Source of the DNA: an uncultured virus (IMG/VR IMGVR_UViG_3300044953_000297)
Lineage: Duplodnaviria > Heunggongvirae > Uroviricota > Caudoviricetes
Strand: one strand, 5' to 3'
DNA length: 64,000 nt
Virus record (IMG/VR): IMGVR_UViG_3300044953_000297
Notes under the pieces: generated by a model
Databases searched by the model: none
Told to the model about the DNA's origin: nothing
The model's input: only the letters and a program-made list of their open reading frames with translations
Part shown: one piece after another, positions 8,390-20,447 of the stretch
Layout: the number at the start of each line of letters is the position of its first letter
Position numbering within the stretch: position 1 is the first letter of the stretch
Made by a program: the position numbers and the translations under genes

Positions 8390-10114
8390 ATGAACTTTAA
8401 ATCTGTATTAAACGATGTTTGTTGTGATTCTCGTATAAAAAACGGGGTTGTGGATATTCGCAATCCCGATCACGTTTTTGTATTGCAGGAATATTTGGAA
8501 AAAGTTGGATTTTCAATTAATGAAATTGTAAACAAAACCGCTTCTTTATTTGAAGCTGGCAGATTTCCTGAAAGACAAGCTTACAACAAAGATGGTATTC
8601 TTGTCACCTTTCCAAACAAAGAGTATCGTGATAGAGCTGTAAATAAAGGTACACATTTTGCGGAAAATCCAAAAAAATCGCAATCCAATATATTTGCAGA
8701 ACCGCCAGCGGATGTTCAACCAGAAAAGCCCGAGGGAAGTGTATCCATTGATTCGGAGTTAAACAACGATGCGGATGACGAACGATTAGATACTTACAAA
8801 AATAGAACGCCTAAAGAAAAAGTGATAGATGCTCAGGCGGTCGATTATATACTGCAAGGAGAAACCCCATTAGTAAATTATAGTGTGGATGAAGCGAAAA
8901 GATACGGTTTCTATAAAAAAGGAACATCTTGGTACAACGCTGACGGAAATCTTGTAGGAGAACAGATTTTTGATGAATCGTTAAACAGACCTTTAATTAA
9001 ATCAAAACCGCTAATAACAGAGGGAGCTGAGGAATTAGAAGACGCAATAGTCAATGCCTTATACGACCGAGGATATCCAAATAAAAATATTGAATCCGTT
9101 GCTAAAAAAGTTGCAATTTCTATTAAACCTATAGTTGGCGATATTAAAGTTGCGGATAGTGTTGGACGTTTTGGTGGAGAACTAAGTCAATTCTGGAAAT
9201 CATATCACGCCACCGATAATACTCCAAAAACAGATGTAATTATTAACAAATTCAACTCTTCTGTCAAATACGGACCATCTCAATTAATGTCTGGTGGAAA
9301 AAATGAATCGTTAGCAACATTTATGGCAGCGGTCGAATCTACCCCAACATTAGAAACACAAGTGATACAAAATGTAACTGCTATGTTGGATAATTTCGTA
9401 GCCTCCACAAGAACAATTCGAGGTGGAGTTGAAGATTTATTAAAAAAGAAACCATCCGAGATTAAATCTGAATTAGAAGAAAAAGTAAAAACAATTGCGG
9501 ACAATGCCAACAAAGCACACAAAGATTTAATGGCATATCTAGACACAATATTCAGTCAAAATGCGCCATTCAAATCTTCCTTTGTACGAGAAGCTATGAC
9601 TGGAGAACATAAGTTTCCACGCGGGTCATTTGCAATAGCAAATTACATATTGTCAGTATCCAAAACAGGAGAGTCAGTCTATTTCAACAAAATTGACAAC
9701 ACGGTTGTAAACAGCGTTGCCAACTCAACAAAAGTCTCTGTACGATTTAAGTCAACCTCGGTCAAAAAGAAGGGAATCAAAACAGGAGAATATAATTTTT
9801 GGAGTGTTGTTGGATTAATCGTTAAAGATTATAAAGAAAAATATACAAAAATAAATGAAATATTAGAATCTCATTCAATATTAACCGAAAATGTTATTGA
9901 TCAAATTAAAGCCTTTTTACAAAATAGTTGGAAATTTATAACTGAAATTTATGACAAAATGATAGCTTATATAAAATCTGGTTTCACCAGTGTACTTAAC
10001 TTTTTCGATATTGGTTTGGATAGTGAAGACATATCGGTAAATGGACGATCTGGCGACCAATCGGTTTATATAGATTTTTCTGCAATACTAAATGGCAATA
10101 CACCAAGCGCGTAA
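8390..10114 (+). CDS. Hypothetical protein (possible nuclease-fold C-terminal domain)
   Basis: 574-aa ORF preceded by TATTTATA motif; TPKTDVII...SVK resembles a PD-(D/E)XK core (weak). Confidence 0.5.
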   Translation: MNFKSVLNDVCCDSRIKNGVVDIRNPDHVFVLQEYLEKVGFSINEIVNKTASLFEAGRFPERQAYNKDGILVTFPNKEYRDRAVNKGTHFAENPKKSQSNIFAEPPADVQPEKPEGSVSIDSELNNDADDERLDTYKNRTPKEKVIDAQAVDYILQGETPLVNYSVDEAKRYGFYKKGTSWYNADGNLVGEQIFDESLNRPLIKSKPLITEGAEELEDAIVNALYDRGYPNKNIESVAKKVAISIKPIVGDIKVADSVGRFGGELSQFWKSYHATDNTPKTDVIINKFNSSVKYGPSQLMSGGKNESLATFMAAVESTPTLETQVIQNVTAMLDNFVASTRTIRGGVEDLLKKKPSEIKSELEEKVKTIADNANKAHKDLMAYLDTIFSQNAPFKSSFVREAMTGEHKFPRGSFAIANYILSVSKTGESVYFNKIDNTVVNSVANSTKVSVRFKSTSVKKKGIKTGEYNFWSVVGLIVKDYKEKYTKINEILESHSILTENVIDQIKAFLQNSWKFITEIYDKMIAYIKSGFTSVLNFFDIGLDSEDISVNGRSGDQSVYIDFSAILNGNTPSA

Positions 10115-10123
10115 CGGTACAAT

Positions 10124-10519
10124 ATGATCATTCAAAAACAATTACTTTGTGCATTTGCCAATAGTACAAATTATAATCAAATAATTGACGGTGTTAAAAA
10201 TCAATATGATTTGGTTGATCGGAAAATATTTGTTTTTGTAAATGAGAAGAATTTAAAGGAGTTATATCTAACATTTAATATACTGAAGGGTCATATTAAT
10301 AACCGATATAAAGGAATTATAAGTGTACACAGGAAAAAGCAAACAAACACGCTTTATACGTTGAACGCTATGAACAAGTTGATTGCCGATGAAAATAACG
10401 GAGTGTTTGATAAAAAGTTTCAATTGAATTGGGATCTATATCAAAATTGTATAATTTTGACCAATGAAATTGGTGTAAAAATTGTGCCATTAAAATTATT
10501 TTCTATAGTCCCAGCTTAA
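10124..10519 (+). CDS. Conserved phage hypothetical protein
   Basis: 131-aa ORF with HRKKQTNTLYTLNAMN motif. Confidence 0.6.
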   Translation: MIIQKQLLCAFANSTNYNQIIDGVKNQYDLVDRKIFVFVNEKNLKELYLTFNILKGHINNRYKGIISVHRKKQTNTLYTLNAMNKLIADENNGVFDKKFQLNWDLYQNCIILTNEIGVKIVPLKLFSIVPA

Positions 10520-10535
10520 TATATATTTAGTACAC

Positions 10536-10564
10536 TTGACATCGTTTTACACCTGTTGTAAAGT
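10536..10564 (+). promoter_or_regulatory. sigma70-type promoter of SSB
   Basis: TTGACA-17 bp-TAAAGT. Confidence 0.55.
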
Positions 10565-10639
10565 GAATCAAGTTAGTTACACTTCTTATCTCGGGTGAGT
10601 TAAGTCTTAACTAATTAACAATTAACCAATTAAATAATT

Positions 10640-11470
10640 ATGGCATTAGATCTAAGTAAATTAAAGAGTCGTTTGAACTCTCTTTCAAACACAAATCAAA
10701 AATCCAACCTCATCTGGAAGCCAAAGCCTGGTAAACAAGTAGTTCGTATCGTTCCCTACAAGTATGTTCCAGAAAATCCATTTATTGAACTCAAGTTTCA
10801 TTATAATTTGAATGGCAAGAGCTATATATCACCTGATAGTTTCGGCCGTCCAGATCCTATTGTTGAGTTTAGTAATCGTCTCAAGAAGACTGGCGATAAG
10901 GAAGATTGGAAGATGGGACGTAAGATGGAACCCAAGATGCGTACCTTTGCTCCTGCAATTATTCGCGGTGAAGAACATGAAGGTGTAAAGTTCTGGGGAT
11001 TCGGCAAGCAAGTTTATCAAGAATTGCTTTCAATCATCAGCGATCCTGATTTCGGTGATATTACTGACCTAAGTAGTGGTCGTGATATTGTGGTGGAATT
11101 TAAGACTGGTGACGACTCAGGCAAGAATTTCCCTGAAACTAACATTCGTGTTAAGCCAAATACCAGTGTTGCGGTTGATCCGAAGAATGGACAGTTGCTT
11201 GAAGCACTCAAGAGTCAAGTCAATATTCTGGATTTATTCCCAGAGTTGAGTTATGATGAACTCAAGGATGTTATGGATAAGTGGCTAAATCCTGATACAG
11301 CAGAAACCGCCGACACACCCGATGTTGTGGCGTCAACAGACGATGATGATGTACCAGTTGCAGCACCAGCTCAAACTGTAACACCTTCACCATCTGCTGC
11401 TAAAGCAAAAACAAATGCTCCAACTAAAGATAGTGTGGAACAAGAATTTGATGACTTGTTCAACTCCTAA
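10640..11470 (+). CDS. Single-stranded DNA-binding protein (gp32-like)
   Basis: WKP...VRIVP, GVKFWGFGKQVY, DITD...GRD motifs; acidic tail ending FDDLFNS. Confidence 0.8.
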   Translation: MALDLSKLKSRLNSLSNTNQKSNLIWKPKPGKQVVRIVPYKYVPENPFIELKFHYNLNGKSYISPDSFGRPDPIVEFSNRLKKTGDKEDWKMGRKMEPKMRTFAPAIIRGEEHEGVKFWGFGKQVYQELLSIISDPDFGDITDLSSGRDIVVEFKTGDDSGKNFPETNIRVKPNTSVAVDPKNGQLLEALKSQVNILDLFPELSYDELKDVMDKWLNPDTAETADTPDVVASTDDDDVPVAAPAQTVTPSPSAAKAKTNAPTKDSVEQEFDDLFNS

Positions 11471-11480
11471 ACAATAAAAT

Positions 11481-11514
11481 AAAGCCGGTGGAGTTTTTAT
11501 ACCCCACCGGCTTT
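11481..11514 (+). terminator. Intrinsic terminator after SSB
   Basis: AAAGCCGGTGG...CCACCGGCTTT hairpin. Confidence 0.7.
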
Positions 11515-11528
11515 CTAGTTATACACAT

Positions 11529-12674
11529 ATGGCAAAAAAATCTAGTGTTACAAAAGAATCTGCTCAACGAGATGAATTAATTGAATTGTTGGCAAACGAG
11601 CTTAACAAAGCAAATAAAGATGGTGGAAAGATCGCTTATTTCTTGGATGAACAGGAAAATCCAGCAGAAATTAGTGATTGGATTGGTACTGGGTCGTCTA
11701 TCCTAGACCTCGCAATTAGCAATCGTCCTCACGGAGGTTTGCCCGTTGGTAAGATGGTTGAATTCAATGGATTGGAAGGTACTGGTAAGAGTCTAGTATC
11801 CGCACATGTTGTTGCAAACACTCAAAAGAAAGGTGGTGTTGCGGTAGTAATTGATACTGAAAACGCAGCTGCTCCTGAGTTCTGGAAGAGCTTGGGTGTA
11901 GATTTGTCTAAGCTACTATATGTTCAATGTGAAACCGTTGAAGATATTTTTGCTCAGATGGAAAAGATGATTGCAATTGTTCGTAAGAGCAACAAAGATC
12001 GTATTCTAACAGTTATTGTTGACTCTGTAGCAGCAGCATCCACAAAATCAGAACTAGAAAGCGACCACGGTAAAGACGGGTTCGCAACTGGTAAGAGTAT
12101 CATTATCAGTAAGGCAATGCGTAAGATTACTACCATGATTGGTCGTCAAAAGGTTCTTACTGTATTTACTAATCAACTTCGTCAGAATCTAAATGCAATG
12201 GCATTTGGTGACAAGTATGTGGTAAGTGGCGGTAAGGCACTTGCTTACCATTGTAGTGTTCGTGTTCGTTTGAACAATACTGGAAAGCTGAAAAAGGCCG
12301 AGGAAGTTATTGGTAACGAGTGTAAAGCGGTTGTTATCAAAAACCGAATAGGTCCACCACAACGACAAGCTAATTTTGAAATTTACTTTGATAGTGGAAT
12401 TGCCGACTATAGCAGTTGGATCAAAGTATTGAAAGAAAATAATATTGTCAAACAAGGTGGTGCTTACTATTCCTATAGAAAAGATGACGGAAACGAATGG
12501 AAATTTCAATCCAAAGATTTTGTGACAACCATGCGGTCTGATGAAGCTCTAAAAGAAGAGTTGTATCTGAAGATTTGTGACGCCGTTATTATGAAATACA
12601 AGGATCCGAACAGCCAGATTGTTGATGACGCTGTGGTTGACACCGAAGAAGAAACTGCTAGAAACGAAGAATAA
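11529..12674 (+). CDS. recA: RecA/UvsX recombinase
   Basis: Walker A GLEGTGKS, IDTENA, VDSVAA, FTNQLR, SGGKAL, KNRIGPP. Confidence 0.92.
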   Translation: MAKKSSVTKESAQRDELIELLANELNKANKDGGKIAYFLDEQENPAEISDWIGTGSSILDLAISNRPHGGLPVGKMVEFNGLEGTGKSLVSAHVVANTQKKGGVAVVIDTENAAAPEFWKSLGVDLSKLLYVQCETVEDIFAQMEKMIAIVRKSNKDRILTVIVDSVAAASTKSELESDHGKDGFATGKSIIISKAMRKITTMIGRQKVLTVFTNQLRQNLNAMAFGDKYVVSGGKALAYHCSVRVRLNNTGKLKKAEEVIGNECKAVVIKNRIGPPQRQANFEIYFDSGIADYSSWIKVLKENNIVKQGGAYYSYRKDDGNEWKFQSKDFVTTMRSDEALKEELYLKICDAVIMKYKDPNSQIVDDAVVDTEEETARNEE

Positions 12675-13747
12675 TGAGTGGTTTCACACCAAACGAACGA
12701 AAGAAACTATTCTCTCTGTTTAAGAACATAGAAGGAGATTCCGTCACAACAGGACTAAAAAAGTCGCTTAACAGCGATGTCCTGTTGGTTGACGGGTTGT
12801 AGTTAAACACCTATATTCGTAGTTTCATGTCAGTGCCATCGCTAAATGATGACGGTCTTCATACTGGCGGTATTGCTGGATTTTTAAAAAGTGTGGGATA
12901 TGCAATTAAATTATTAAGTCCTACGCGGGTTATTATTGTATTTGACGGAAAAGGTGGATCACAAAAAAGAAGAAAGATTTATCTTGATTACAAAAATGGT
13001 CGTAGAACTGATATTAGATTAAACAGAACATATAATGAATTGTCGGACAGTATTACAGAATCGCAAAATTTTAAAAAGGAATTAATTAGAACGGTAAGTT
13101 ATTTGGATACCCTTCCAACAACTGTAATGGCCATTGATCAAGTTGAAGCCGATGATACTATTGCCTATCTAGCTAAACAGACATTCAAAGATAGCAATGT
13201 CACTATCATGTCTACCGACAAAGACTTTTTACAGTTAGCTAACGATAGAATTAATGTGTGGAGTCCTGTAAAGAAAAAGATTTTTGGTTGCAAAGAAATT
13301 GTGGATGAATATGGTATTACATGCAAAAATTTTATCTTCTATAGAATTATGGAGGGTGATACAAGTGATAATATTCCGGGATTAGATGGTGTAGGTTTAA
13401 AGAGAGTTGTACAAGCGTTTCCTTTTCTAGGAGAAGATCCTCAGGCTTGTATACAACAAATATATAATTATAGTGAGAATCACCGTAACAAGTATAAGAT
13501 TTATGATCGTGTGCTAGACAACAAATTATTGTTGGAACGAAATTATGAATTGATGCAGCTGCATGATACTCAAATTCAATCATTCACTCAATTGAGAATT
13601 GAAGAAATAATAAACAAGCCAATTCCCCGTATAGACAAGATGGGATTCAGTAAATTAATAACTGAAGATAAGATGTGGAATAATTTGCCAAACTATATAG
13701 TTTGGTTAAGTGAGACGTGGGGTAAACTCAACAGTTTTGTTGAGTAA
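12674..13747 (+). CDS. 5'-3' exonuclease/flap endonuclease (T4 RNase H-like), interrupted by in-frame TAG at 12800-12802
   Basis: Starts at TAATG overlap with recA; VLLVDGL*LNTYIRSF, VFDG, YKNGR, EADD, STDKD, GDTSDNIPG motifs. Confidence 0.88.
12740..12805 (+). other. Candidate ribosomal bypass element 1 (long hairpin + TTG-TAG-TTA)
   Basis: CCGTCA/TGACGG, CAACAGGAC/GTCCTGTTG and GTCGCT/AGCGAT stems end at 12796; then TTG TAG TTA. Confidence 0.65.
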
Positions 13748-13805
13748 AACAAACAATAACTTTTTACAAGTTGAAAAATTAACAACGCAAGTATACTATT
13801 TACAT

Positions 13806-15188
13806 ATGGAGACCAACAAACAAATCATTGATAACCTAAAGAAATACGGACTTGACTTTCAAATCAAGTGCATAGCCTGTCTGCTATCAGATCGTAGTTT
13901 CATGGAAAGAATTCAAGACATCGTTGAGGCTGAGTTTTTTGAAAGTGATGCTCAAAAATGGATATTAAAAGAAAGTGTTAAGTATTTTAATGAATATAAA
14001 GATTTACCAACATTAACCGTTTTCAAAGTTAAGGTTGACACTGTTGAGAACGAAGTTCTTAAGAAGACTATTGTAGACAGTTTGAAGTTGGTATACCAAA
14101 AGTTAAATGACAACGATTTGAAATTTGTCAAGGAACAATTTTTGGAATTCTGCAAGAATCAGAAGCTTAAGAATGCTATCTTTGAAAGTGCAGATTTGTT
14201 GGCCATCGGTCAATACGATAAAATCAAGATGGTTGTTGATGTGGCTATGAAGGCTGGTATGGAAAGAAATATCGGTCATGAATATGATGTAGAAATTGAA
14301 AATCGTATGAGCATCATGGCTCGTAACACAACTAAAACCAATTGGACTGAAATTGATACCATTATGGATGGTGGTCTTGGACCTGGCGAATTAGGAATCG
14401 TTGTTGCTCCGGCTGGTATTGGTAAAAGTTGGGTTCTCGCCAAACTTGGTGCTGAGGCAATGAAACAGGATAAGAATGTTTTGCATTTTACCTTGGAGTT
14501 AAACGAAAATTATGTTGGTCTTCGTTATGACAGTTGTTTTACCGGAATAGATTTCCAAAATATTCGCAACAATATTGACATCGTAAAACAAAAGATTGCA
14601 GAGGTGCCTGGTAAACTTGTGATCAAGTATTTCCCTCTAAAGACGGTATCAGCTCACAGTTTAAAGGCGCACGCTGAAAGGTTAGCCGTATTGGGTACAA
14701 AGATTGACATGATTGTTGTAGATTACGCAGACATTCTTCGTCCAGTACACAGTGATCGTAACAGTAATAGTTATAGCGAAGCTGGTGGTATTTATGAAGA
14801 GTTGAGAAGTATTGCTGGTGAACTTCAAATTCCAATTTGGAGTGCAAGTCAAGCAAATCGGTCAGCCGCAGACGAAGATATCGTTATGGCACATCATGCT
14901 GCTGATAGTTATCGCAAAATTATGACTGCCGACTTCGTAATGAGTGTATCTCGTAAGACAAACGACAAAGTTAGTAATACCGCACGATTCCATATCATTA
15001 AAAATCGTTTCGGACCAGACGGTTTGACATTCCCAAGCAAAATGAATGCTGGCTGCGGACAAATTGAAATTTTCTCTGAAAATAGCCGTGAGGGTCTCGC
15101 TGTACTAAATGAAATGATGGATGGTGAGAATAATGTTAAAAAAGTGTTGAAAAACAAGTGGAATGCTCACAATACAGATGATGAATAA
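13806..15188 (+). CDS. DnaB-like replicative helicase (gp41-like)
   Basis: Walker A APAGIGKS, TLEL, VDYAD, SASQANR, KNRFG. Confidence 0.9.
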   Translation: METNKQIIDNLKKYGLDFQIKCIACLLSDRSFMERIQDIVEAEFFESDAQKWILKESVKYFNEYKDLPTLTVFKVKVDTVENEVLKKTIVDSLKLVYQKLNDNDLKFVKEQFLEFCKNQKLKNAIFESADLLAIGQYDKIKMVVDVAMKAGMERNIGHEYDVEIENRMSIMARNTTKTNWTEIDTIMDGGLGPGELGIVVAPAGIGKSWVLAKLGAEAMKQDKNVLHFTLELNENYVGLRYDSCFTGIDFQNIRNNIDIVKQKIAEVPGKLVIKYFPLKTVSAHSLKAHAERLAVLGTKIDMIVVDYADILRPVHSDRNSNSYSEAGGIYEELRSIAGELQIPIWSASQANRSAADEDIVMAHHAADSYRKIMTADFVMSVSRKTNDKVSNTARFHIIKNRFGPDGLTFPSKMNAGCGQIEIFSENSREGLAVLNEMMDGENNVKKVLKNKWNAHNTDDE

Positions 15189-15292
15189 TAATTCATAGTT
15201 TTGTCGTAAGAAAAAAGTTTTAAAAAATTAAAAATAATTTTTGCGACAAAACTGAAAATTAGGTTTCAAATTGATAGTTATTTTTTACCAGT

Positions 15293-16909
15293 ATGAATAA
15301 AGAAATTTTTATAAAGAAGCGAAATGGTATAGTTGAAAAGTTTAACGCGGACAAAATAAACAAAGTGTTGCAATGGGCGACTGACGATATAAAAGGTGTC
15401 AGTTTTGAAGAAGTAGGAATGAATGCACATTTATCATTTTTTGACGGAATGGCAAGTGTTGATATTCACAAATTACTTATTGAGTCTGCTGCAAATCTAA
15501 TTAGTGAAGAAAAACCAAACTATCAATATGTGGCCTCTAGACTGTTAAATTATCAGCTTAGAAAAAATGTATGGGGAGGTAAAAATCCACCCAAGTTATA
15601 TGATATTGTAAAAAAGAATGTTGAGTCACTCGTATATGATCAACAAATTCTAGAATGGTATAGTAAACAAGAATTTGATAAATTGGATGAATATCTGAAG
15701 CATGACCGTGATTTTAATTTCACATATGCTGGTATCAAACAATTGTGTGATAAGTATTTGGTACAAAATCGTGTAACCAAAACTGTTTACGAAACTCCAC
15801 AATTTACATATATGTTGATTGCTATGACCTTCTTCAAAGGTTATAAAGAAAAGAGACTAGAGTATATTAAAAAAGCATACAACTACTTTAGCAAACACAA
15901 GATTAATCTTCCAACGCCAATCATGGCTGGAGTCAGAACTGTAATGAAGAGTTATGCAAGTTGTTCTCTCTTTACTGTTGATGACACCCTTAAGAGCATT
16001 TTTGCTAATAATAGTGCAGTAGGATTTGCTACTGCAAGTCGTTATGGTATTGGTTTGAATCTATCAAGATTACGTGCCACAAATGCTCCTATTCGTAATG
16101 GTGAAGTAATTCATACAGGTCCAGTTCCTTTTAGTAAGGCATTTGAATCTACCGTAAAGAGTTGTCACCAGAATGGTATTCGTGGCGGAAGCGCAACAGT
16201 TAATTTCGCATGGTTTCATTATGATATTCTTGACATTCTTGTATTGAAGAACAATCAAGGAACTGATGATAATCGTGTTCGCAAATTAGATTATTGTATT
16301 GGTTTAGACAAATTAATATTTGAACGATTCTTACAGAACAAGGACGTTACACTATTTAGTTATCATGAATGTCCATCATTGTGGAACAGTTTTGGATTGC
16401 CAGACTTTAAAGAAAAGTATGAAAGGGCTGAAGCTGACAAGAATATTAAATTCAAGAAGAAAGTATCTGCTCGTGAACTGATGGGTCTACTTGCTAAAGA
16501 AAGATTGGAAACTGGTCGTATTTATACCATGCATGTAGATCATGCAAATGAACACGGTAGCTGGCTAGATCAAGTAGATACAAGCAATTTGTGTTTACAT
16601 CCAGATACACAAGTTTCTTGCGTAGTTGATAATATTCCCATGAAATTATCTCTTAAAGAAGTGGATGATTTATTCAAACAAAATAAAAATATAAATGTAT
16701 TATCAAAAAATATAGACAATCAAGAAATTTCTTATAAAGAAGTTTTAAATTCAAATATTACCGGTGTTGATGCAAACTTAATAGAAATTACAGATGAAGA
16801 AACTGGATTTACTATTAAATGTACAGAGGATCATTTAATTTTCACTAAAAATAGAGGATATGTAAAAGCCAAAGATTTAAATGAAACTGACAGTTTAGAT
16901 ATTATATAA
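15293..16909 (+). CDS. nrdA: Ribonucleotide reductase alpha, N-terminal part fused to split intein N-fragment
   Basis: ATP cone, PTPIMAG, ASC, QNGIRGG; SNL followed by intein start CLHPDT at 16592. Confidence 0.92.
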   Translation: MNKEIFIKKRNGIVEKFNADKINKVLQWATDDIKGVSFEEVGMNAHLSFFDGMASVDIHKLLIESAANLISEEKPNYQYVASRLLNYQLRKNVWGGKNPPKLYDIVKKNVESLVYDQQILEWYSKQEFDKLDEYLKHDRDFNFTYAGIKQLCDKYLVQNRVTKTVYETPQFTYMLIAMTFFKGYKEKRLEYIKKAYNYFSKHKINLPTPIMAGVRTVMKSYASCSLFTVDDTLKSIFANNSAVGFATASRYGIGLNLSRLRATNAPIRNGEVIHTGPVPFSKAFESTVKSCHQNGIRGGSATVNFAWFHYDILDILVLKNNQGTDDNRVRKLDYCIGLDKLIFERFLQNKDVTLFSYHECPSLWNSFGLPDFKEKYERAEADKNIKFKKKVSARELMGLLAKERLETGRIYTMHVDHANEHGSWLDQVDTSNLCLHPDTQVSCVVDNIPMKLSLKEVDDLFKQNKNINVLSKNIDNQEISYKEVLNSNITGVDANLIEITDEETGFTIKCTEDHLIFTKNRGYVKAKDLNETDSLDII

Positions 16910-17078
16910 AAATAATTATATGTTGTATTTAAACGATGAAAAAATAACAACATTGAATTTAAAAAAGGATTTTTGAAATATGTTAAAAATTAAAAAAATA
17001 AAAGAAAAATCAGATGTGTATGATATAACCGTAAAAGATAATCATAATTTTTATGCCAATAATATATTAGTTCACAAT
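16592..17078 (+). mobile_element. Split intein in NrdA (IntN 105 aa at 16592-16906, IntC 33 aa at 16980-17078)
   Basis: Block A CLHPDT, block B CTEDH, blocks F/G VYDITV..NHNFYANNILVHN/C; 70-nt spacer containing stops and an AAGGA RBS. Confidence 0.92.
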
Positions 17079-18068
17079 TGTCTTGAGGTAAATCATCCTT
17101 TAACTCCAATTTATGATGTAAATGATCCCAAGGGAGAAATCGGCGTTTGTATTTTGGCCGCATTAAATTGGTTAGAAATTAAAGATGATGAGGAAATGGA
17201 AAATGTTTGTGAAATTATTGTGAGAATGTTAGATTCACTAATTGATCACCAACAATATTTCGTTCCAGCAGCTGAAAACTTTGCAAAGAAGCGTCGTAGT
17301 CTTGGAGTCGGTGTAAGTAATTTGGCTGCTCTATTGGCTAAAGAAGGCATAAAGTATTGGGATAAAGAAACTCCGAACTTTGTTGCCAAATGGATGGAGA
17401 AGACGAGTTATTATTTAATTAAAGCTAGTGTACAAATGGCTAAAGAAGTTGGTAAATGTGAGAAGTTTGATCGCACTAAATTCAGTCAGGGAATTCTTCC
17501 AATTGACACATACAAGAGAGATATTGACGAATTTATTACAGAAAAATTACATTGTGACTGGGAAACTCTTCGTGAAGAAATTAAGAAACATGGTATGAGA
17601 CACAGTACACTTACTGCTTGTATGCCTGTTGAATCTAGCAGTGTGATTCAAAGTAGTACCAATGGCATTGAACCACCCCGTAGTGCTATTAGTTTCAAGG
17701 GTAGTAAGAGCAATATCTTGCCTGTGGTAATTCCAAATATTGATAAGTATAAAGATAATTATACTTTTGCGTTTGACATGCCAAGCAATGAAGGTTATCT
17801 AAAGGTAGCTGCGGCCATTCAAAAATTTACGGATATGAGCATAAGCACCAATACCTATTATATTCCTTCACGATATGATAAGAATAAAGTGCCTGTACAA
17901 GACGTAATCAAAGACATTCTATTGGCTTATAAGTATGGATTAAAGAATCTTTATTATGCAAATACAGATGATGGTGATAAACAAACTGTTATGGAAGAAA
18001 AGAATGTAGAAATAAAACAACCAACTGTACAAGAATCCGGTTGTGAAAGCGGAGCTTGTGCGCTATAA
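16980..18068 (+). CDS. nrdA: Intein C-fragment plus ribonucleotide reductase alpha C-terminal part
   Basis: HN/CLEV, VCILAA, RSLGVG, MPVESSS, NGIEP, KNLYY, terminal CESGAC. Confidence 0.92.
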   Translation: MLKIKKIKEKSDVYDITVKDNHNFYANNILVHNCLEVNHPLTPIYDVNDPKGEIGVCILAALNWLEIKDDEEMENVCEIIVRMLDSLIDHQQYFVPAAENFAKKRRSLGVGVSNLAALLAKEGIKYWDKETPNFVAKWMEKTSYYLIKASVQMAKEVGKCEKFDRTKFSQGILPIDTYKRDIDEFITEKLHCDWETLREEIKKHGMRHSTLTACMPVESSSVIQSSTNGIEPPRSAISFKGSKSNILPVVIPNIDKYKDNYTFAFDMPSNEGYLKVAAAIQKFTDMSISTNTYYIPSRYDKNKVPVQDVIKDILLAYKYGLKNLYYANTDDGDKQTVMEEKNVEIKQPTVQESGCESGACAL

Positions 18069-18079
18069 TAGGAGGAAAA

Positions 18080-19138
18080 ATGAAAACAGTACTAAATAAG
18101 AAAAATATAGATCAGATGCGTAATCCAATGTTCTTGGGAGAAGATCTATCTTTACAACGATATGATCAGATCAAATATCCTAAGTTTTATGAATTGTATG
18201 ATCAACAGTTAAATTTCTTTTGGAGACCACAAGAAGTTTCGTTGGTCAAAGATATTGCTGATTATAAGAACCTTTCCCCAGAAGAACGATTTGTATTTGA
18301 TAGTAATTTGAAATTTCAAACTATGACCGACAGTATGTTGAGTCGTAGTATTCATGAATTAATGAAACATTGTACGAACAGTGAGTTAGAGATTTGCATG
18401 AATACGTGGAGTTTCTTTGAAACTATTCATAGTAATAGTTATACATACATTTTAAACAATGTATATCCAAATGCTACTAAGTTCTTTGATAGTATCTTGG
18501 AAGACGAAGAAATAGTCAAACGTGCGAAAGCCATTAGCAAAAAATATGATGAATTACTCACAGGTAACACCGATGTGAAACAACAGTTATTTGACGCTAT
18601 ATTGGCAACGCAAATTACTGAAGGATTGATTTTCTATGTGTCATTCGCATGTAGTTTTTATTTTGGTTATCGTGGAAAGATGGAGGGCAATAGTAAAATT
18701 ATCAAGTTCATCAGTAGAGATGAAAATCTACATGTTGCTATTACTCAGAACATCATGAAGAATTGGATTAATAATCCAGATGAGGGTTTTCAAGACATCG
18801 TTAAGAAGAACGAAGAAAAAATCTATGCTGCATATGAAATGGCGGTTAACGCCGAAAAAGACTGGGCAGATTATCTATTCAGCAAGGGCAACTTGGTTGG
18901 GTTGACATCTGAAAGTCTAAAACACTATGTAGAGTGGTTGGCTAACAATAGATTATCAAGTTTGGGATATAAGAAATTGTATTCTAATGCAAAAATTAAT
19001 CCTTTAAGTGGTTGGTTGGATAGTTATTATGATAGTAAGAAACTTCAAGTAGCACCTCAAGAAACTGAATTGAGTAGTTATGTTAAAGGCATAGATAACA
19101 CAATTAATGAGAATGCGTTTGACGATTTTAAACTTTAA
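18080..19138 (+). CDS. nrdB: Ribonucleotide reductase beta subunit
   Basis: FFWRPQEV, ETIHSNSY, EGLIFYVSF, RDENLH, VAPQETE; GGAGG RBS. Confidence 0.93.
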   Translation: MKTVLNKKNIDQMRNPMFLGEDLSLQRYDQIKYPKFYELYDQQLNFFWRPQEVSLVKDIADYKNLSPEERFVFDSNLKFQTMTDSMLSRSIHELMKHCTNSELEICMNTWSFFETIHSNSYTYILNNVYPNATKFFDSILEDEEIVKRAKAISKKYDELLTGNTDVKQQLFDAILATQITEGLIFYVSFACSFYFGYRGKMEGNSKIIKFISRDENLHVAITQNIMKNWINNPDEGFQDIVKKNEEKIYAAYEMAVNAEKDWADYLFSKGNLVGLTSESLKHYVEWLANNRLSSLGYKKLYSNAKINPLSGWLDSYYDSKKLQVAPQETELSSYVKGIDNTINENAFDDFKL

Positions 19139-19161
19139 AATAAACTTACAATAAAAAAACG

Positions 19162-19190
19162 AAGACCATCTTATTTGATGGTCTTTTTAT
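19162..19190 (+). terminator. Intrinsic terminator after nrdB
   Basis: AAGACCATC-loop-GATGGTCTTTTT. Confidence 0.7.
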
Positions 19191-19212
19191 TTATATTTAT
19201 AATAACAATATT

Positions 19213-19776
19213 ATGGATGATTTAACAAAATATGCTGATTTTGCTGATTTAATTATTAAGGTGGGAGGCGCATTGAGTTTGTTGGGTGGATTGGCATTAT
19301 GGCTTCACTCTTTAAAGAAGAGTGTCAATGAAATACTGGGTGAGGTAAGACCCAACGGAGGCAAATCTCTGAAAGATCGGGTAACAGCAATTCAGGCACA
19401 GGTTAATAAAGATTCAAATAACATAAATACCATATATTCTAGGCAGAAATGGATGTTGGATAATAGACCAGAACCAATATTTGAATGCAATACCAGTGGA
19501 AGTTGTACTTGGGTTAATGAAAAATACTGTCAATTATTACAACACGATGTAGAATATTTTAAAGGCAACGGATGGAAAAATGGCATTCATAATGATGACA
19601 GACAGCGTGTTGAGATCGAATGGGATCGAGCTATAAAAGATCGTAGAAGTAGCACATCAGAACATAGATTGGTAGATAGAGAAGGATCGGTGATACCAGT
19701 AAAGGTAACCGCAATTAGAAATGATGATCATGGATATATAGGGCGAATTGAGATTATAGATAAACAAAATAAGTAA
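19213..19776 (+). CDS. Membrane-anchored PAS-domain protein
   Basis: N-terminal hydrophobic helix; WVNEKYCQL...GWKNGIHNDDRQRV...W PAS signature. Confidence 0.75.
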   Translation: MDDLTKYADFADLIIKVGGALSLLGGLALWLHSLKKSVNEILGEVRPNGGKSLKDRVTAIQAQVNKDSNNINTIYSRQKWMLDNRPEPIFECNTSGSCTWVNEKYCQLLQHDVEYFKGNGWKNGIHNDDRQRVEIEWDRAIKDRRSSTSEHRLVDREGSVIPVKVTAIRNDDHGYIGRIEIIDKQNK

Positions 19777-19814
19777 TATTCTATACCCCCGTACTATTTA
19801 TAAGATATAACAAT

Positions 19815-20447
19815 ATGATATCTTCTAAAGAATTAGTTAAAAAACTCGTCAAAGAAACATTGGAACAAAAATATACAAATTCCAAAAAGTCGTGGGAAGA
19901 GATGATGGAAGAATTGTCCAAGGAAATTAAAAAGCCAGTGGTATTGGATGATAAGGGTAATTATAATGTATGTGAGTGTGAACCACATCATATTAATATT
20001 AGACCAATTACACACAATGTATACGATGTACAAGCATTTAAAGACGGCACAGATAGAACCAAGAAGTTGTATGTAAAGTATGAAGATTTAAAGAAGTTTG
20101 TTAAAGAATATCTAGACGAGAACAATCTAAATTATGTAGACAGTACATACAGTCGCAATGTTGAAAACAGTAAGGATAAAGAAGGCGGTAAAAAGGCAGA
20201 TAAAGCTGCCGATGAACAAAATTTGGTTGATCCTGAGAAAAACAATAAAGTCGTCAAAAACATCAAGGCTGAGCCAATGAATAAAGAAATTGACGATCCC
20301 ACTCAACCAATGAGAGAGGTGGAGAAGTTTGAACGCCAGGTAGATCATAAGAGTAAGAAACCTGATTATAAACCACCTCAATTGCCAAAGAATTTGCAGA
20401 AATTGGTTGTTAAATATACCAAGGGCGGTAAAACTAAGAAAAAATAA
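19815..20447 (+). CDS. Hypothetical Lys/Glu-rich protein
   Basis: 210-aa ORF preceded by TACTATTTATA. Confidence 0.6.
   Translation: MISSKELVKKLVKETLEQKYTNSKKSWEEMMEELSKEIKKPVVLDDKGNYNVCECEPHHINIRPITHNVYDVQAFKDGTDRTKKLYVKYEDLKKFVKEYLDENNLNYVDSTYSRNVENSKDKEGGKKADKAADEQNLVDPEKNNKVVKNIKAEPMNKEIDDPTQPMREVEKFERQVDHKSKKPDYKPPQLPKNLQKLVVKYTKGGKTKKK

Follow-up and report, generated by a model that had tools for sequence, protein, structure and literature searches.

A 5'-3' exonuclease gene with an in-frame stop

We analyzed a flap endonuclease (FEN; 5'-3' exonuclease) gene that carries a single in-frame stop codon and lies in a 64,000-nt stretch of DNA from an uncultured lake phage of the class Caudoviricetes (IMG/VR record IMGVR_UViG_3300044953_000297; hereafter, the window, to the whole of which all coordinates refer unless a locus is named). 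The gene belongs to a replication module that encodes a gp32-like protein, a RecA/UvsX-like protein, FEN, a DnaB-like helicase and ribonucleotide reductase. The features of the FEN locus are as follows.

11529..12674, + strand: recA/UvsX-like recombinase gene (Pfam PF00154 RecA, 178.8 bits; open reading frame (ORF) list)
12672-12674, + strand: recA stop codon TAA, overlapping by 1 base the FEN start codon ATG at 12674-12676 (TAATG)
12674..13747, + strand: FEN (5'-3' exonuclease) gene, with a single in-frame TAG inside 6 extra bases
12674..12799, + strand: FEN part 1, 42 codons to ...VLLVDGL, including the first metal-binding Asp of the 5' nuclease fold
about 12728..12805, + strand: cassette-like tract of ~75 nt, delimited by segment identities and a three-way alignment
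12740..12796, + strand: three-segment RNA hairpin of 22 pairs, its last base directly before TTG
12797..12799, + strand: TTG (Leu42), proposed take-off codon, invariant in all cassette alleles with a 5- or 6-nt insert
12800..12802, + strand: in-frame TAG, proposed slow A-site codon, read directly from the sequence
12803..12805, + strand: TTA (Leu), proposed landing codon; intact homologs have a single Leu codon here
12806..13747, + strand: FEN part 2, with 313 codons that begin at the resume codon AAC (Asn) and a terminal stop
12827..12829, + strand: internal ATG (Met52), gene-caller start of a 306-aa product, with no Shine-Dalgarno (SD)-like motif upstream

After TAG, the frame resumes with LNTYIRSFMSV... 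and remains open to 13747 without a further lesion; the 6 extra bases can be counted either as TAG plus TTA or as TTG plus TAG. The profile of the N-terminal exonuclease domain (Pfam PF02739, 5_3_exonuc_N) spans the stop, aligning residues 36-214 with profile positions 2-164 (95.6 bits, cut-off 34.3); an ORF starting at ATG 12827 would enter this profile only at position 24. The C-terminal helix-hairpin-helix domain (PF01367, SAM-fold) scores 24.9 bits, under the cut-off of 40, and precomputed PF01367 matches are listed for many close homologs of FEN.

A protein search yielded 3718 FEN homologs, of which the best 120 were inspected. Among these, the intact homologs are mostly 355 aa long, that is, 357 minus 2, and read DGLNTYIR at the junction; Met52 is kept in the intact proteins too. 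All 14 full-length homologs that were fetched lack extra residues at the junction, 13 of them reading DGLN and one DALN. In the intact homolog P0001, the segment ILLVDGLNTYIRSF aligns gap-free to VLLVDGHHLAYRTF of Taq polymerase, the whole alignment being without gaps over residues 13-206 of the Taq enzyme and likewise against mycobacterial Pol I (E-values of 2e-19 and 6e-18, respectively); the Asp of VDG is presumably a metal binder. Products of 306 or 307 aa that begin at the internal Met represent 11 of the best 120 homolog clusters, with the junction DNA seen for two of these (P0114 and P0119). A megablast search with the region as query found nothing among 50,697 phage records, and the nearest phage records are at most 43% identical at the protein level, which leaves no cultured relative for bench work.

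An earlier reading of the window made from the sequence alone (the original prediction) had described a gene that starts at a TAATG overlap with recA, reads VLLVDG-TTG-TAG-TTA-AAC, regains DGLN when exactly 6 nt are removed and is otherwise free of lesions. All of this holds and, relative to functional homologs, which are two residues shorter, the 6 nt are an insert. What the single sequence could not reveal is an endonuclease cassette behind the insert, a 5-nt sister form of it, and a stop/start overlap (TAGTG) in that form which opens a rival route to expression.

Recurrence of the insert in related phages

Two contigs from an independent sequencing run of another study (X7) span the junction gap-free (12730-12924 and 12776-12955), and the sequence TTG TAG TTA is present in four further viral-contig loci; the insert is therefore not an assembly slip. 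The near-identical IMG/VR record G001 carries the insert as well and may represent the same phage. A contig from another run (X24) lacks one base at 12808 and so has the 5-nt form; this run is labelled RNA-Seq but is probably DNA and contains diverged relatives only.

The 5-nt form, GGA TTG TAG TG AAY, occupies the same place in 15 of the 80 loci retrieved by protein similarity. It both stops translation and shifts the frame, and is accompanied by the distinctive upstream sequence seen in the window. A pattern scan returned 80 stretches, half of which lie in FEN genes (36 with the 5-nt and 4 with the 6-nt insert), the other 40 being chance matches elsewhere. After deduplication, the FEN set comprises 83 distinct sequences, namely, 58 intact ones, 21 with the 5-nt insert and 4 with the 6-nt insert (the window included), shares that are not unbiased frequencies, the insert having been the target of one of the two scans. 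No allele with a sense codon instead of the stop turned up in scans that left 10 nt at this place free to vary; the codon is always TAG, except for TAA in one locus, L179. A scan of viral contigs for longer inserts (6-21 nt) matched 14 stretches, among which the only FEN genes were the four known 6-nt loci. One metagenome scan produced 10 stretches: four known cassette alleles, L179 and five unrelated sequences. L179 is a separate lineage, represented by a single metagenome contig, with an insert of the form GGC ACC TAA AAT AAC; at 78% identity, L185 is its nearest relative, an intact allele that reads DGTNTFIR. Between recA and the TAA-bearing FEN, the L179 contig encodes, on its minus strand (1673-1984), a 103-aa ORF that belongs to no Pfam or PHROG family and is not a recognizable endonuclease.

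Selection on the interrupted gene

Both frames are unbroken in all 25 distinct insert alleles, that is, a part of 42 codons is followed by one of 313 or 314 codons. In clades that consist of insert alleles only, including those that lack the endonuclease, dN/dS is 0.00-0.08 (dS up to 0.22), with the exception of one pair with 7 differing codons (0.19); the intact controls are at 0.00-0.05, apart from one pair with 2 differing codons (0.25). This argument is weakened by recombination of the cassette, which obscures how long each allele has carried the insert: some of the divergence may predate the insert, although a dead gene is still unlikely. By these signs, the FEN gene is under purifying selection and appears to be functional despite the insert.

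A homing-endonuclease cassette behind the insert

In loci with the 5-nt insert, a 310-aa ORF sits between recA and FEN, its end overlapping the FEN start. The full-length ORF is found in 31 loci (84-100% identity) and is absent from the window. It matches PHROG 559 (E-value 2.5e-16) and PHROG 3339, 'homing endonuclease' (1.2e-10), with annotations of HNH/homing endonuclease. Pfam NUMOD3 scores 21.7 bits in L078 and 16.5 bits in L036 (cut-off 20.4), thus exceeding the cut-off in L078 only, and the restriction-endonuclease-like family MTES_1575 scores 30-32 bits, under its cut-off of 38.2. The recA and FEN genes are adjacent in each of the 46 intact alleles where this can be determined (12 do not allow it) and in 4 of 4 alleles with the 6-nt insert. 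The alleles with the 5-nt insert have a gap between the two genes of 963-965 nt in 9 cases and of 91-95 nt in 6 cases, the remaining 6 being undeterminable. The short spacer retains the hairpin of the endonuclease start together with the last bases before the FEN ATG and, for this reason, is a deletion remnant of the endonuclease gene. The hairpin in question, of 14-15 bp and followed by a T-run, surrounds the endonuclease start codon (L036:1540-1610; L029/L035/L042:2405-2500); it resembles a terminator or a translational lock and persists where the endonuclease ORF has been deleted.

The distribution of sequence identity around the insert indicates how the cassette moved. The 5-nt allele L078 is 97-98% identical to the intact allele L017 from the first base after the insert, but only 51-55% identical before it, and identity switches at the insert likewise in the comparisons of L027 with L002 and of L036 with L022. 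A 60-nt segment that contains the hairpin upstream of the stop (see below) is 100% identical across the four compared 5-nt backgrounds, the downstream parts of which are 65-90% alike. The window differs from its closest intact relative, L001, in the same manner: the hairpin segment is 57% identical, whereas both flanks are 78-87% identical, and the hairpin segment of the window is 97% identical to that of L135. In a tree of the downstream 313 codons, 5-nt alleles fall among intact ones at no fewer than 8 points, and the intact L001 falls inside the 6-nt group; the endonuclease-free 6-nt form occurs on at least 3 diverged backgrounds. To judge from these alignments, the pattern is that of homing with one-sided co-conversion that ends at the insert.

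An origin of the insert as an immunity patch associated with a homing endonuclease is well supported, and we regard it as highly probable; that the insert protects against cutting, we infer. The 310-aa endonuclease would cut the highly conserved site that encodes VDGLNTYIR in the intact FEN, and an insert of 5 or 6 nt at this site would make the genome immune. The 6 extra bases would then be the scar-like 3' end of a small mobile cassette, and the window would hold the endonuclease-free, in-frame 6-nt version, along with ~70 nt of cassette sequence that encodes the hairpin.

Distant paralogs of the nuclease domain of this endonuclease (28-38% identity) are found elsewhere in the replication module of the relatives (L037:4822-5202, L045:4843-5214, L047:3184-3594, L073/L074:1428-1622 and L131:316-510). 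In another locus with the 5-nt insert (L030:159-2404), recA itself is interrupted: a fragment that ends with ...GDKYC is followed by a 344-aa ORF with a DUF559 nuclease-like end and then by the C-terminal part of recA, an arrangement that suggests an intein or an endonuclease insertion.

A conserved hairpin upstream of the stop

The hairpin at 12740..12796 consists of an outer segment (CCGTCA/TGACGG), a 2-nt bulge, a middle segment (CAACAGGAC/GTCCTGTTG) and an inner segment (GTCGCT/AGCGAT). Its predicted energy is -29.1 kcal/mol (z-score -5.5), and none of 200 shuffled sequences is as stable. The hairpin described in the original prediction, of ~22 bp in three segments and abutting TTG, is thus real. 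Covariation of its arms, which that prediction had proposed to examine, is present in the cassette alleles: across six distinct alleles, 97.7% of the cells are paired, compared to 30-54% in slid registers, and two pairs are changed on both sides (C-G/A-U/G-U and A-U/G-C/G-U), giving a covariation score that was reached by 6 of 500 shuffles. The residue encoded in the 5' arm varies (Gly, Glu, Thr) while the pairing is kept.

The role in a ribosomal hop that the original prediction assigned to this hairpin fared less well. A set of 17 intact sequences from two clades shares 13 consensus pairs, 7 of them changed on both sides, and the mean energy in the intact sequences is -23.8 kcal/mol vs -26.2 kcal/mol in the insert alleles. 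Because insert-free homologs also carry a strong, covarying hairpin at the same codons, the hairpin is a family-wide feature that is older than the insert, did not arise for a hop and may serve something else; all of this weighs against the hop. The sharing of the hairpin by insert-free homologs, which the original prediction had named as a refutation, is partial, in that the register differs. In 11 of 11 distinct fragments with the insert, the helix takes in all of GAYGG, stopping 0-1 nt short of the end of the Gly codon. Full GAYGG pairing is found in 2 of the 43 intact fragments, most of which have a helix end 4-10 nt further upstream, a difference that comes from two lineages only, the cassette and L179. 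The latter has the same outer and middle stems as the cassette, with compensatory changes. L179 and its intact relative L185 share the 5' arm, but only L179 reads GTT GAC GGC, and three synonymous differences between them complete the outer stem in L179 (-29 vs -17 kcal/mol). A role of the hairpin in a hop is plausible, although weakened by the presence of the hairpin in intact genes.

The hairpin of the intact FEN genes lies within codons ~18-38 (the region of 12725-12790 in the window; loci L001-L075). In a close clade, its arms contain the SD-like motif AAGGAGG and the anti-SD-like motif CCTCCTT, though SD motifs are scarcely used by this phage. This hairpin may represent a regulatory RNA element, a site of processing or a site of pausing.

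Proposed rescue of the interrupted gene by a forward hop

The best reading of the rescue appears to be a ribosomal hop, UUG-(UAG)-UUA, to which we give an even chance of being correct. The ribosome would pause when UUG, paired to Leu-tRNA, occupies the P site and UAG the A site. The peptidyl-tRNA would then unpair, the mRNA would slide 6 nt ahead (5 nt for the sister form), and re-pairing of the tRNA would take place on UUA (on GUG for the sister form). Decoding would resume at AAC and yield the normal DGLNTYIR protein, with the junction peptide VLLVDGLNTYIR. The forward pull on the mRNA would come from the hairpin as it re-forms, its 3' arm stopping immediately short of the take-off codon.

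No mechanism other than a hop recovers the invariant DGxN spacing for the out-of-frame 5-nt form as well as the in-frame 6-nt form. The stop comes right after the take-off codon throughout: TAG follows TTG in all cassette alleles with either insert, and TAA follows ACC in L179. In the window, as originally noted, the Leu codons TTG and TTA flank the stop, such that 9 nt would specify one Leu. The gap of 5-6 nt is too short to hold a take-off stem-loop or a mini-SD, and SD-like motifs precede only 3 of the 57 long ORFs of the phage. Literature precedents exist for a hairpin drive. In a 70S system, forward (+1) shifting at CUU UGA is stimulated by upstream hairpins that refold and abut the shift site (PMC6321510), and pairing of the exiting mRNA has been proposed as the forward driver in T4 gene 60 (bioRxiv 2024.12.09.627546).

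Several points weigh against the hop, beyond those already made for the hairpin. A full match between the take-off and landing codons exists only in the 6-nt form and, in the window, requires a tRNA-Leu that reads both UUG and UUA; in the 5-nt form (UUG to GUG) and in L179 (ACC to AAU), the match extends to 2 of 3 positions. The GTG within TAGTG of the 5-nt form opens a 314-aa ORF, so that translation could restart there. All cassette alleles come from one or two ancestors; hence, the apparent conservation of TTG TAG does not amount to many independent trials. Finally, the viral contigs contain no second copy of the L179 form.

The most serious rival, in the 5-nt form, is coupled restart. In this case, the gene would be split, with termination after a 42-codon peptide and reinitiation at GTG (5-nt form) or at the downstream ATG 12827 (window), and either the two polypeptides together or the C-terminal fragment alone would provide the nuclease activity. 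Every 5-nt allele indeed has the overlapping TAGTG, from which the 314-aa ORF begins as M-NTYIRSF; a stop/start overlap is the usual form of translational coupling, and FEN itself starts by such an overlap, TAATG. Homing endonucleases are also known to leave genes in pieces that still assemble, as in Topo2L 39/60 and Aeh1 NrdA (bioRxiv 2022.08.31.505936), and gene callers derive 306-aa products from the internal Met in the 11 clusters mentioned above. However, the junction codon is TTA in the 6-nt form of the window and AAT in L179, neither of which is a start, and restart at ATG 12827 would lose LNTYIRSF, which is invariant in homologs, along with the beginning of the PF02739 domain. There is no SD-like motif before either site (albeit in a phage that hardly uses them), and GTG starts are rare, with 3 among the 57 long ORFs under the longest-ORF rule. 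The split would fall between the first strand, which carries the catalytic Asp, and the next helix, without the added tails of known endonuclease-split genes, and two mechanisms would be required for two forms of one cassette. On balance, we consider restart unlikely, but the strongest of the alternatives to the hop. Plain readthrough by a near-cognate or suppressor tRNA, with TAG decoded and two extra residues (DGL-X-LNTY) tolerated, seems somewhat less likely still. It is compatible with the frame of the 6-nt insert, with the rarity of TAG, which in the window ends fewer frames than either of the other stops (4 of 61 stop-to-stop frames of at least 150 codons) and with the tRNA sets that large phages often carry, a related contig with the 5-nt insert having 22-24 tRNA genes. 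Readthrough cannot, however, rescue the 5-nt form of the same cassette and, as the original prediction argued, would put two residues into a segment of invariant length, free of extra residues in 14 of 14 homologs and gap-free in Taq and mycobacterial Pol I. Moreover, were such residues tolerated, a single point change from TAG to a sense codon would suffice for full expression, and no such allele was found. We detected no tRNA genes in the window and no match in the related records G001-G003, which are fragments, whereas the 24 tRNA calls in the G004 fragment include none with the anticodon cta, tta or tca; all related records searched being fragments, the absence of a suppressor tRNA is not proven.

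Two further explanations appear far less probable than either of these. The gene could be dead or dispensable, with the insert only an immunity scar or a hitch-hiker and FEN function either gone or provided by a different enzyme. Selfish cassettes are able to spread in spite of a cost, and an unrescued stop truncates the protein after 42 residues. Yet, the complete absence of second lesions among the insert alleles, dN/dS values that in all but one pair are as low as those of intact controls, with endonuclease-free clades included, and the occurrence of the endonuclease-free 6-nt form on several diverged backgrounds make this very unlikely. The least likely, in our estimate, is removal or heterogeneity at the nucleic-acid level, whereby the 5-6 nt would be excised from the mRNA or part of the genomes would lack the insert. 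Near-identical backgrounds with and without the insert do exist (the 306-aa cluster P0107 is 99.3% identical to the intact L001 over its length), and the hairpin could be a recognition element, but the insert is present in assembled contigs of several runs, although contigs cannot show minor variants. We know of no precedent for the excision of 5-6 nt from RNA in bacteria or phages.

Reassignment of TAG was also considered and rejected: ORFs are dense under translation table 11, and the 5-nt form is out of frame anyway. The window frames of at least 150 codons end with TAA in 45 cases, TGA in 12 and TAG in 4. The tRNA genes of G004, a phage with the 5-nt insert, lie at about 9000-20300 (loci L189-L210) and number 22 by Rfam and 24 by ARAGORN; several contain long inserts, and one is read by ARAGORN either as having a four-base anticodon (ctct) or as tRNA-Gln with a 3-nt insert.

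Implications of a possible miniature bypass

With somewhat less confidence than in the hop at this locus, we propose that it exemplifies a natural stop-hop, in which a hairpin re-forming behind a stop-stalled ribosome would drive a slide of 5 or 6 nt, Leu-stop-Leu would be read as one Leu, and re-pairing at 2 of 3 positions would be tolerated. Phages might routinely employ such minimal gaps as immunity patches to fend off homing endonucleases whose targets are active-site codons of replication genes, and gene 60 would mark the long-gap end of a widespread class. The one natural case of translational bypassing that has been well studied is T4 gene 60, with a gap of 50 nt; if the hop is real, the FEN gene of this lake phage is a natural miniature of it. 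The 5-nt and 6-nt versions of one cassette would offer a compact system for testing what drives a hop, with natural controls in the form of intact alleles on near-identical backgrounds, endonuclease-bearing and endonuclease-free forms, and covarying hairpin variants, such that three features can each be addressed: the stop, the landing codon and where the hairpin lies with respect to the take-off codon. The locus would also imply that a gene can survive when a selfish endonuclease puts non-coding bases into one of its active-site motifs. In annotation, such 'pseudogenes' or truncated 306-aa calls in phage metagenomes may be intact genes.

Neighboring genes

The large subunit of ribonucleotide reductase is encoded in two ORFs (15293-16909 and 16980-18068), with the beginning of an intein splicing domain at the end of the first ORF and the end of such a domain at the beginning of the second, an arrangement that looks like a split intein. 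Just upstream of the gp32-like gene are two ORFs, at 8390-10114 (574 aa) and 10124-10519 (131 aa); neither belongs to a Pfam family, and no PHROG family was found for the 131-aa ORF.

Comparison with known systems

The closest parallels in origin are T4 gene 60 and its MobA element, in which the bypass insert protects against nicking by MobA and outlives the endonuclease (bioRxiv 2022.08.31.505936). As in that system, the non-coding insert in FEN marks the 3' boundary of a cassette borne by an endonuclease and falls ~40-46 codons from the gene start, inside a conserved metal-binding D-G motif, with the stop directly after the take-off codon. In both, the endonuclease is often lost while the insert stays, the backgrounds are diverged, and a stem-loop lies upstream. 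The differences are substantial as well. The FEN gap is 5-6 nt, compared to 50 nt in gene 60, and has no internal stem-loop or mini-SD, in a phage that barely uses SD motifs. The endonuclease, with NUMOD3 and a restriction-endonuclease-like domain, is unlike MobA as far as family scans, the only comparison made, can tell. The host gene is FEN rather than a topoisomerase, and the endonuclease is located between two genes instead of splitting one; FEN has no evident added N-terminal peptide signal, and its case is known from sequence alone. The FEN element thus seems to work like the MobA/gene 60 cassette without being a member of it. The genes in pieces that endonuclease insertion has produced in T4 (39/60) and Aeh1 (nrdA) similarly show an essential replication gene broken and its function kept (bioRxiv 2022.08.31.505936); those pieces, however, have their own starts and added tails, whereas the FEN break is 5-6 nt long, tail-less and, in the form found in the window, without a start codon.

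With regard to mechanism, the FEN arrangement resembles the synthetic stop-hops of Escherichia coli (Weiss et al. 1987; as described in PMC5009743 and bioRxiv 2024.12.09.627546), where matched codons surround a stop and 9 nt yield one residue. In those constructs, hops of +5 and +6 were both reported, with a slow A-site codon as the trigger (per the same two sources). They are low-level, artificial and free of stimulators, whereas the FEN arrangement is natural and recurrent, and stands behind a conserved hairpin. According to the 2016 review by Atkins and colleagues (PMC5009743), in-frame stop-hops had been shown only in synthetic constructs, with no natural case known at that time. The hairpins that refold upstream of +1 frameshift sites (PMC3639245, PMC6321510) are similar in that a stable hairpin abuts the shift site, a stop is in the A site, the movement is forward and the ribosome is 70S; these, however, are engineered +1 shifts to an overlapping codon, compared to a hop of 5-6 nt to a non-overlapping codon in FEN.

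Our full-text literature search for coding gaps with homing endonucleases and for stop-hops retrieved only the gene 60 papers and a paper on the terminase of the Streptomyces phage Hau3 (PMC10732093). In the Hau3 terminase, 10-nt inserts are bypassed at UUA, and a junction peptide detected in E. coli supports the bypass. The trigger there is a rare sense codon, the role is regulatory, the gap is 10 nt, and the available portion of that paper describes no link to a homing endonuclease. Like FEN, the Hau3 terminase is a phage gene with a short gap that occurs naturally in its coding sequence and for which a 5' stem-loop has been proposed as the stimulator, and its 10-nt gap appears to be the closest short natural case among those retrieved.

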